Positions 3,321 through 4,706 of a DNA stretch of 64,000 bases are shown in pieces. The DNA is from Eledone cirrhosa (Eukaryota). Position numbers and translations under genes: made by a program. The number at the start of each line of letters is the position of its first letter. Position 1 is the stretch's first letter. The DNA lies in contig OZ024749.1 of NCBI GenBank assembly GCA_964016885.1, positions 34,782,001 to 34,846,000 on the forward strand, in the 5' to 3' direction. A model generated the notes under the pieces. The model was not told where the DNA came from. It ran no database searches and saw only the letters and a program-made list of their open reading frames with translations.

Positions 3321-3697
3321 ATGCAAAGGTTTTATTTAAAATTGTTGGGTTACAACAAGTAAATATTTTATAACTGATATAAAGCACTCGACAAGTTTTT
3401 GGAGTAGATATATGATATTAAACAAATGGAAACTATATTTATAAAACCATATTTATTTCATTATACATATTTCAGGGATACTATATTAAAAATATGGCAT
3501 GCCTATTATACTATCCAGACAGCTTCCTAATATAATGGTCGCTTATAATATGGTACGTCAAAATTATTTATAAAACTGTTTATATATTGTATTTTATCTG
3601 ACGAAGGCATGCCATATTTTTAATATGGTATCCCTGAAATATGTATAATGAAATAAATATGCTTTTATAAATATAGTTTCCATTTGTTTAATATCAT
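3321..3697 (+). mobile_element. Short hammerhead-carrying element family B (PLE pLTR/retrozyme-like) with an internal inverted partial copy at 3411-3504
   Basis: Flanked by (TA)n. Homologous in inverted orientation to 4449-4706. Segment 3411-3504 is the reverse complement of 3605-3697. Confidence 0.7.
3590..3655 (+). ncRNA. Type I minimal hammerhead ribozyme
   Basis: Stem I TATTTTAT/ATGAAATA; CTGACGA 3598-3604; stem II AGG-C-ATGCCATATT/AATATGGTAT-C-CCT; GAAA 3636-3639; self-complementary stem III ATATGTAT; AUA cleavage triplet with H17 at 3647. Confidence 0.8.
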
Positions 3698-3756
3698 ATA
3701 TATATATATATATATATATATGAAAAGTGTAATTTACTACACAAAACGAAGGTTAT

Positions 3757-4200
3757 AGAGAAAATTGTGGTTGGTAATGGCACATGGAATATATAAGAGA
3801 CAGAATACTTTTTTGTGAAAAAACATATAATTTTATAAGGTAAGGAAATAATAAAGGGTATAAAAAATGACCGGTTTCGATGGGTCTGCAAAAGCCATCT
3901 TTTCAAATGTTGATTAATATTAAGAAAAATTAATAAGAAGAAGAGTTAAAATTTGAGATTTGAAAATTCAAGTATAAAATTCGTTGTGGGATTTCATAGT
4001 AGTTTTCATCTTGGTAGCAGCTCGTTGACATATTTTTCTTAATATTAATCAACATTTGAAAAGATGGCTTTTGCAGACCCATCGAAACCGGTCATTTTTT
4101 ATACCCTTTATTATTTCCTTACCTTATAAAATTATATGTTTTTTCACAAAAAAGTATTCTGTCTCTTATATATTCCATGTGCCATTACCAACCACAATTT

Positions 4201-4205
<5 letters not shown>
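3757..4205. repeat. Long inverted repeat (about 174 bp arms, about 100 bp spacer), foldback element family C
   Basis: 3757-3930 is the reverse complement of 4032-4205. Flanked by (TA)n and (TC)n(TA)n. Confidence 0.9.
4051..4098 (+). ncRNA. Hammerhead-like motif with U3-A8 core (mirror copy on the minus strand at about 3864-3911)
   Basis: TTGAAAA 4056-4062, stem II GATGG/CCATC, GAAA 4084-4087, palindromic ACCGGT, GUC triplet (C at 4093). Stem I is imperfect (AACAT/ATTTT). Confidence 0.6.
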
Positions 4206-4265
<60 letters not shown>

Positions 4266-4266
<1 letters not shown>

Positions 4267-4413
4267 ACCAGGGCGTGTAATGCGAAGTTACTGTAGGTTC
4301 ACCCAGGTGATGTTTAGGTTCACATCAGTGTCGAGGTGTAGAGCTAGACAGAGTGTAATATGATAATACAAGGACGATTGGTTAAGTAATGAAGACTGAA
4401 CCAATCATCCTTG

Positions 4414-4420
<7 letters not shown>
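4266..4420 (+). mobile_element. Deleted derivative of element family D with a terminal hairpin
   Basis: Matches the reverse complement of both ends of 9283-9537 but lacks the ribozyme. Local inverted repeat ATAATACAAGGACGATTGGTT / AACCAATCATCCTTGTATTAT. Confidence 0.65.
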
Positions 4421-4448
<28 letters not shown>

Positions 4449-4449
<1 letters not shown>

Positions 4450-4703
4450 GATATTAATAAATGGAAACTATATTTATAAAACCATATTTATTTCATTATA
4501 CATATTTCAGGGATACCAAATTAAATTATGGTATGCCTTCATCAGACAAAATACAATATATAACAGTTTTACAAATAAGCTTTGACGTACCCTATTAAAA
4601 TGCAACCATTATTTTTGGAAGCCATCCGGATACTTGTTGAGTGCTTTATATCAGTTATAAAAATATTTACTTGTTGTATCCCAACAATTTTAAATAGAAC
4701 TTT

Positions 4704-4706
<3 letters not shown>
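4449..4706 (-). mobile_element. Short hammerhead-carrying element family B, second copy
   Basis: Reverse-complement homolog of 3321-3400 plus 3510-3697, between (TA)n tracts. Confidence 0.7.
4489..4553 (-). ncRNA. Type I minimal hammerhead ribozyme
   Basis: Minus strand: TATTTTGT-CTGATGA-AGGCATACCATAATTTAATTTGGTATCCCT-GAAA-TATGTAT-A-ATGAAATA. Confidence 0.8.

Follow-up and report, generated by a model that had tools for sequence, protein, structure and literature searches.

Hammerhead-bearing insertions in a (TA)n microsatellite of Eledone cirrhosa as probable PLE insertion units

Background

A stretch of 64,000 nucleotides from Eledone cirrhosa (GenBank assembly GCA_964016885.1, contig OZ024749.1, positions 34,782,001 to 34,846,000 of the forward strand; hereafter the window, with positions counted from its first letter) contains two hammerhead ribozyme motifs on opposite strands, each within a short element of one (TA)n tract. 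What are the elements that carry these motifs, and how did they come to be inserted there? As a ribozyme find the locus is ordinary, as thousands of such motifs per animal genome have been published. Its interest lies in the insertion process: how Penelope-like elements (PLEs) integrate is still unresolved, and the field has yet to settle how their head-to-head arms and their tail arise. The original prediction, made from the sequence, described two inverted copies of an AT-rich element (family B) and read them as PLE pseudo-LTR remnants with a 5'-truncated inverted copy. Here we conclude, with a probability of about 0.85, that an endonuclease-bearing, (TA)n-targeting PLE produced the two elements, B1 and B2, in independent insertions that carry no coding sequence. 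The category that suits them is that of truncated or non-autonomous PLE insertion units, and not that of autonomous PLEs.

Results

The window is AT-rich and dense in microsatellites, and one (TA)n tract at 2885-4706 houses five short stacked elements: A (2885-3297), B1 (3323-3695), C (3722-4205), D (4265-4416) and B2 (4449-4706). B1 and B2 are separate insertion events among these five and the only family B elements in the span 3321-4706 to which the original prediction assigned two copies. The intervening 3722-4416 is occupied by the unrelated C and D, and B2, like B1, turned out to be composite. The (TA)n repeat adjoins all four family B ends, at 3298-3322 to the left of B1, at 3696-3721 to its right (where the first 6 letters fit the element too), at 4417-4448 by the short end of B2 and at 4707-4745 by its tail end. 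Because the ends sit within (TA)n, a target-site duplication is unreadable at either element, a limit that is also stated for PLEs in a section of PMC8557442.

Both elements carry a type I hammerhead, at 3590-3655 (+) in B1 and at 4489-4553 (-) in B2, recognized by a descriptor match and a three-way alignment, with CUGAnGA, GAAA, U16.1-H17 and a three-helix junction all present. In B1, the 8 bp of helix I join 3590-3597 to 3648-3655, followed inward by the core CUGACGA (3598-3604), helix II with a C.C mismatch inside (3605-3635), GAAA (3636-3639) and the 8-nt palindrome of helix III (3639-3646); H17 is A3647, and the predicted cut falls after it. The B2 core, CUGAUGA, occupies 4545-4539 on the minus strand, where H17 is A4497 and the cut is predicted after 4497. 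The positions and motifs of the original prediction were confirmed, and the alignment bears out the differences it listed between the copies (N7, distal helix II, and A-U to G-U in helix I) as well as the self-complementarity of stem III, AUAUGUAU. The designation "minimal" applies loosely: helix I extends over 8 bp, an 8-nt palindrome makes up helix III, and the covarying register shows neither the extra nucleotide nor the G10.1-C11.1 pair of the published min-HHR consensus.

The hammerheads of B1 and B2 are real and beyond chance. A strict descriptor run over the whole window matched three times, at B1, B2 and a third place, 42436 (-), and gave no match in any of 200 block-wise dinucleotide shuffles; a looser core count averaged 0.03 per shuffle. 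The third match belongs to a sister family, E (42378-42444, minus strand), which has helices I and III as in B and a rewritten helix II. Aligned three ways, B1, B2 and E show standard pairing in all 57 pair cells, and four of the nine helix II pairs are altered on both sides while the C.C mismatch is retained. This level of pairing and two-sided change was attained by 5 of 500 shuffles, with 35-58% paired in slid controls, a comparison that uses three sequences from which the structure itself was derived.

Rfam at the gathering score gave 0 matches in the whole window and so missed the hammerheads; at E<=10 over 2800-9700 it gave 88 matches, with hammerhead families absent and miRNA-like hairpin noise as the best. 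A covariance model recovered only its three training motifs, the inverted arm, a weak 45570-45641 match (E 0.18) and a metagenome locus, L003. This locus was one of three from a metagenome pattern scan, in which no coding PLE parent of family B was found. Its hammerhead-like motif at 3308-3383 is weak (E 0.034) and was selected by the search pattern; L003 lacks a long ORF and shares no DNA similarity with the window. The other two, L001 and L002, were dismissed as chance, lying inside long open reading frames and having no helices.

The anatomy of B1 and B2 depends on how their ends are read. By alignment alone, B1 resembles B2 plus a 116-nt insert, with ends common to both, which would suggest a unit of 258 nt whose 5' end is fixed and which B1 acquired an insert into afterwards. 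Sequencing reads overturned this description. Four runs were aligned to B2 (4441-4714): X1, X13 (RAD), X5 and X7, with family B matches in 5,640 contigs, 34,842 reads, 77 contigs and 4 contigs, respectively. X5 and X7 bear other species labels; family B is highly repeated and shared across species labels. No RNA run was among the sequencing runs listed for the family B sequence. In the RAD data, 12 of the 15 joints listed (of 65) connect 4441-4459 to 4630-4645 on opposite strands. These 12 comprise 8,446 reads, and since 6,623 of them belong to a single joint, a few loci dominate. The linker and loose-end letters of the RAD reads match B1 3397-3418, and the B1-type linker also occurs as loose ends in X1 and X5 contigs, so that the tail is contiguous with the 3' end in three runs. 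The junction within B2 itself is hardly spanned in X1, with a depth of 39.5 at 4631 against 10,396 at 4627 (X1 depths are sums over contigs and no measure of copy number). Because reads link the tail to the 3' end and hardly cross the B2 junction, the 74-75 nt block at 3323-3396 and 4632-4706 is a 3' tail and not the start of the element.

Family B has two 3' ends, 48 and 139 nt beyond the cut site, and as the 6 letters after the first of them also fit (TA)n, the tail is counted as 85 nt. Each insertion consists of head-to-head, 5'-truncated copies of an end module (hammerhead, about 55 nt, tail of about 85 nt), and in both only one arm has the tail: this arm stops at the tail end, and the other stops short of it, where an internal TATATA-like sequence resembles the target repeat. 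In B1, the long arm (3323-3504, minus strand, 182 nt) is an inverted 5'-truncated copy that runs from helix II to the 3' end and through the whole tail (3323-3407), without the CUGAnGA box; the tail ends in a predicted stem-loop followed by about 10 unpaired nucleotides. The short arm (3512-3695, plus strand, 184 nt) is a pLTR-like copy with the hammerhead. Between them lies a 7-nt filler, 3505-3511, which is the reverse complement of 3643-3649 and, judging from these letters, possibly templated. In B2, the pLTR-like short arm with its hammerhead (4449-4632, minus strand, about 184 nt) meets a long arm (4632-4706, plus strand, inverted relative to it) that comprises only the last 75 nt of the tail and aligns to the B1 tail with 70 matches, 4 mismatches and 1 gap. 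The B1 short arm aligns to the B2 sense arm with 164 matches, 17 mismatches and 5 gap columns. The two arms of B1 are identical at 92 of 94 positions (the long arm against 3605-3698), yet each agrees with B2 at 86 of 94. Since the arms of B1 are closer to each other than to B2, the mirror arm arose separately at each insertion.

These coordinates revise the inverted partial copy of the original prediction, 3411-3504: its end at 3504 holds, and the reads extend it to 3323. Position 3504 mirrors 3605, the first base past CUGACGA, and the stop beside this box had been taken as meaningful. The reads show further junctions near 4488, 4526 and 4569-4578, that is, junction points differ between copies, and the cut site is 43 nt off; a link to ribozyme cleavage is ruled out by position, and the stop beside CUGACGA is probably chance. 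The fivefold drop in X1 depth from 4551-4560 to 4571-4580 could mean that many copies begin just upstream of the ribozyme, but alignments are also cut short there by a 1-nt deletion near 4563 that only B2 has.

Variation among the reads was expected to spare the core if the hammerhead has been maintained. Among the 40 variants listed (of 64), no substitution falls on the 12 core positions of the 65-nt motif, against 12 substituted positions of the 53 others (P = 0.066; in the X1 tally by kind, 5 of 35 places lie outside those listed if the threshold is the same). The direction is the expected one and leans toward conservation across copies, although it is not significant by itself. Four frequent changes at proximal paired positions in X1 preserve pairing, at 4494 (38%), 4501 (46%), 4510 (43%) and 4514 (34%), and the one at 4501 renders the helix III palindrome perfect. 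Rarer listed changes in X1, at 4516 (18%), 4509 (9%) and 4531 (8%), break a helix II pair unless the partner change is among those unlisted.

The predicted folds qualify the description of the hammerheads as intact, which holds for their sequence; in context, folding predicts a structure other than the active one. In the full plus-strand transcript of B1, the inverted arm is predicted to pair with the ribozyme (probability 0.998 at A3647), leaving helices I and II at 0.0. In the sense arm alone, helix II reaches 0.89-1.0 and helix I 0.004, and helix I of B2 in context is at about 0.02. Predicted energies put the hammerhead fold of the monomer 4-6 kcal/mol higher than the minimum. The original prediction regarded stem III as suited to dimeric cleavage, but B1 and B2 cannot form a dimer in cis, as ribozymes on opposite strands cannot pair within one transcript; the B1 ribozyme is moreover predicted to be sequestered by the inverted arm of its own element. 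For the self-duplex of helix III, -2.2 kcal/mol is calculated in family B, against -8.3 for ACCGGU, the corresponding palindrome in families A and C. The folding model suggests that monomer activity is low and that the hammerheads in the B1 and B2 copies are passengers, probably inactive. Low or protein-assisted activity is reported for metazoan PLE hammerheads in parts of PMC4209133 and PMC11167929, and the weak predicted folds of B1 and B2 fit it.

Family B is not alone in its build. Eight palindromic units of the window have arms plus a one-sided tail, the tails measuring 33, 38, 85, 35, 98, 38, 85 and 61 nt. In six of the eight, the short end has 3-7 letters in common with the flanking repeat, and in two, A2 and H, it has none; against random end points the matches have P values of 0.02-0.06 each. 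The two copies of family A, A1 (2885-3297) and A2 (8647-9070), have near-perfect arms of about 200 nt and tails of 33-38 nt, with a U3-A8 core and GCAA replacing GAAA in all three intact arms. The family C insertion (3722-4205) has 174-nt perfect arms and a 35-nt tail, and both arms contain a U3-A8 hammerhead variant, at 4056 (+) and 3906 (-), with the core UUGAAAA and an ACCGGU palindrome; its short end adjoins (CT)n, with 5 letters in common. The family D insertion (4265-4416) has short arms and a 98-nt tail. A hammerhead-bearing relative of it at 9284-9536 (-) is built as B2 is, with an inverted arm consisting of the tail only; its motif at 9418 (-) has a 60-nt helix II region and the palindrome ACGUGCGU. 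A further type I hammerhead at 56798 (-), adjoining (TA)n, also has a 60-nt helix II region, with the palindrome ACAUAUGU, and by eye part of its insert looks like that of family D. The motifs at 9418 (-) and 56798 (-) and the variants of A and C are matches of a relaxed scan. Three more units in (TA)n (G, H and I, at 8316-8580, 57045-57279 and 59963-60120) have tails of 38, 85 and 61 nt; as no hammerhead was detected in them, we infer their PLE origin from the build. The tail ends of family B, of family C and of the 9284-9536 copy of D are predicted to form a small hairpin followed by a short unpaired stretch, and TTACAC occurs near the tail end in A, C and D. It is possible that the hairpin or TTACAC acts as a start signal for the reverse transcriptase (RT).

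In 140 of the 149 low-complexity-filtered window ORFs, a Pfam search found no PLE RT or GIY-YIG domain, and the proposed link of B1 and B2 to a PLE protein is one of anatomy. No ATG-led frame runs through the family B tail in any of the three sense frames. The RT at 53644-54906 (-), with RVT_1 and PHD matches, is LINE-like, 4865-5326 (+) encodes a C2H2 finger typical of a LINE 3' end, and 7091-7558 (-) resembles a transposase fragment by eye and has no Pfam match. Pfam matches on tandem-repeat ORFs at 12230-13647 were set aside as noise, with no passing stretch. In the cephalopod literature outside subscription journals, Repbase and Dfam we found no description of these families, and the portion consulted of a repeat paper on Octopus vulgaris (PMC13282606) has 0 occurrences of "hammerhead" or "ribozyme"; family B may already be catalogued.

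Discussion

Two further features, a tail on one side and a microsatellite target, strengthen the identification of PLE pseudo-LTR remnants with an inverted 5'-truncated copy. All features of this kind, namely the inverted truncated copy, the one-sided tail, the pLTR hammerhead and (TA)n targets, are in print for PLEs, in passages of PMC8557442, PMC3846280 and PMC4209133. A reaction that would yield B1 and B2 can be proposed along the lines of the PLE literature. An RT-GIY-YIG protein would nick both strands of the microsatellite, and every nicked end would serve as a primer for the RT. Synthesis would start from one of them at the tail end and from the other at an internal site, where priming would be helped by 5-7 nt of match to the target. 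The two short cDNAs would then be joined at their heads. A first cDNA ending inside the tail would give insertions of the type of B2 and 9284-9536, like L1 twin priming; one that runs further would give the overlapping arms of B1, A and C, which would need two RNAs, a tandem template or fold-back synthesis. In the source elements the hammerhead would be kept by selection; its cleavage after AUA is probably weak there, and would take place in a dimer or with help from the protein of the element. Self-priming has been proposed for PLEs in a section of PMC3846280, and the in vitro work on an anole PLE in PMC11167929 includes two-strand nicking of AT-rich DNA and two RT starts that bound the tail.

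The strongest competitor is a variant of this explanation with the same mechanism, in which the short arm is a defined unit, either a complete pLTR of about 184 nt copied to the RNA 5' end or a non-autonomous mini-element mobilized in trans by a PLE. The sense arms of B1 and B2, 88% alike, begin at the identical base, 78-79 nt upstream of helix I, and in B2 this base sits on an 8-nt palindrome; random truncation fails to explain the shared start. The centres of A1 and A2, members of one family, likewise agree within about 5 nt, the ORF start is absent from the tail, and 184 nt fits the length of 181-218 bp given for rotifer pLTRs, some of which start with a palindrome, in part of PMC3846280. 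The read depths speak on both sides. RAD depth is down by only about a third over 4571-4630, whereas in X1 most sequence ends well before 4632, with depths (summed over contigs) of 0.02-0.09 M over 4581-4630 against a peak of 3.7 M. The other junctions near 4488, 4526 and 4569-4578, and one contig from organism D that continues beyond 4632 with different letters, also argue against a fixed start. We regard a defined unit as possible though unlikely.

It is improbable that B1 and B2 are solo monomers of a non-LTR retrozyme, that is, small RNAs that their own hammerhead cut and circularized before insertion in trans. The type I hammerhead, low GC content, length of 250-370 nt and high copy number would all suit such an origin, and retrozymes are themselves proposed PLE derivatives in parts of PMC7229834 and of bioRxiv 10.64898/2026.07.22.740005. 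However, the window contains no head-to-tail repeats (150-450 bp, each with a hammerhead), 14 of the 15 joints listed of 65 are on opposite strands and the remaining one is a 92-nt skip, the element ends do not lie at the cut site, and the monomer fold is predicted to be unstable. Still less credible are foldback or MITE-type DNA transposons with long TIRs that inserted at TA and owe their hammerhead to chance or capture: the long inverted arms and the TA on either side are as expected, but the arms are unequal, the tail is one-sided, centres and junctions vary, B2 has no internal inverted repeat, and hammerheads occur in five of these families. Least probable of all is that a cluster of AT-rich repeats was misassembled or yielded fold-back reads, since the arms of B1 differ at 2 of 94 sites and a 391-nt X1 contig repeats the two-arm build, parts of which recur in four runs, even though inverted PLE structures hinder assemblers (according to part of PMC8557442), reads were aligned to B2 only, and none of the pieces listed spans B2 whole.

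Returning to PLE insertion, these results lead us to a more specific speculation, which we hold tentatively and with the odds somewhat against it. Its first part is that the stumps record two-primer insertion in (TA)n-targeting PLEs, and its second that one end primes at the tail end while the other anneals internally through 3-7 nt. The internal microsatellite-like stretch, being the place of annealing, would therefore set the tail length (33-98 nt across families). Thirdly, in the long-tail class of B, D and H (85-98 nt), the first cDNA would often halt within the tail. If this is true, long-tail inverted insertions with no visible inverted repeat would be misannotated as fixed-length SINEs, and the stumps do resemble unit-length SINEs unless the tail is recognized. 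Junction counts in one genome would put the two-primer model to the test, given a family that is abundant, long-tailed and matched to its target at the short end.

Comparison with known systems

The closest counterparts are the truncated units of EN+ PLEs, as described in sections of Craig et al. 2021 (PMC8557442) and Arkhipova et al. 2013 (PMC3846280). Family B is like them in its pLTR type I hammerhead, in the head-to-head inverted 5'-truncated copy with a tail at one end, and in a microsatellite target that masks the target duplication. The same sections record (TA)n targets together with canonical hammerheads in the Hydra clade and a microsatellite bias in Neptune. The tail is longer, about 85 nt versus the 30-40 nt given there. 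Penelope/Poseidon elements (rotifer, anole) have their ORF start inside the pLTR and tail; family B has none there, and no coding part was seen in the window. The single ORF of an autonomous EN+ PLE, with telomerase-like RT and GIY-YIG, was likewise not found in the window ORFs scanned (140 of 149).

As ribozymes, the motifs resemble the min-HHRs of metazoan PLEs treated in part of Cervera and de la Pena 2014 (PMC4209133) in their full core, long helix II and palindromic helix III (15.2-16.2/loop 3) that is unstable as a monomer, and in occurring mostly as single dispersed motifs. Opposite-strand hammerhead pairs 100-700 bp apart had already been reported there from Schistosoma. Family B differs in having 8 bp in helix I (against 4-5 bp), an 8-nt AU-rich palindrome and a conserved C.C mismatch in helix II. 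The min-HHR consensus in that source has an extra nucleotide after A9 and G10.1-C11.1; family B has neither in the covarying register, with A-U or G.U instead, though C11.1, present in about 9% of X1 depth, would permit the published register.

The Poseidon PAc of Anolis, as presented in sections of Frangieh et al. 2024 (PMC11167929), provides an experimental parallel, with an AT-rich target, two end points that bound the tail, a hammerhead just upstream and a stem-loop near the RT start. Unlike family B, PAc begins its ORF within helix II and has closely spaced RT starts; its priming involves no homology to the target, while in family B the short end matches 5-7 nt. The non-LTR retrozymes, in the parts concerned of Cervera and de la Pena 2020 (PMC7229834) and of the bioRxiv preprint, are also short, non-coding and high in copy number, with a type I hammerhead. 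They are arranged head-to-tail, in contrast to family B, the ends of which are unrelated to the cut site.

B2 and 9284-9536 share the build of an L1 insertion made by twin priming, as each consists of a 3' piece and an oppositely oriented internal one, with a small gap. The arms of B1, A and C, in contrast, overlap by 90-200 nt, which is not simply given by one RNA primed twice. Relative to published descriptions, family B thus departs in three respects: a tail of about 85 nt without an ORF start, a helix I of 8 bp closed by an A-U pair, and a short end that matches its target.
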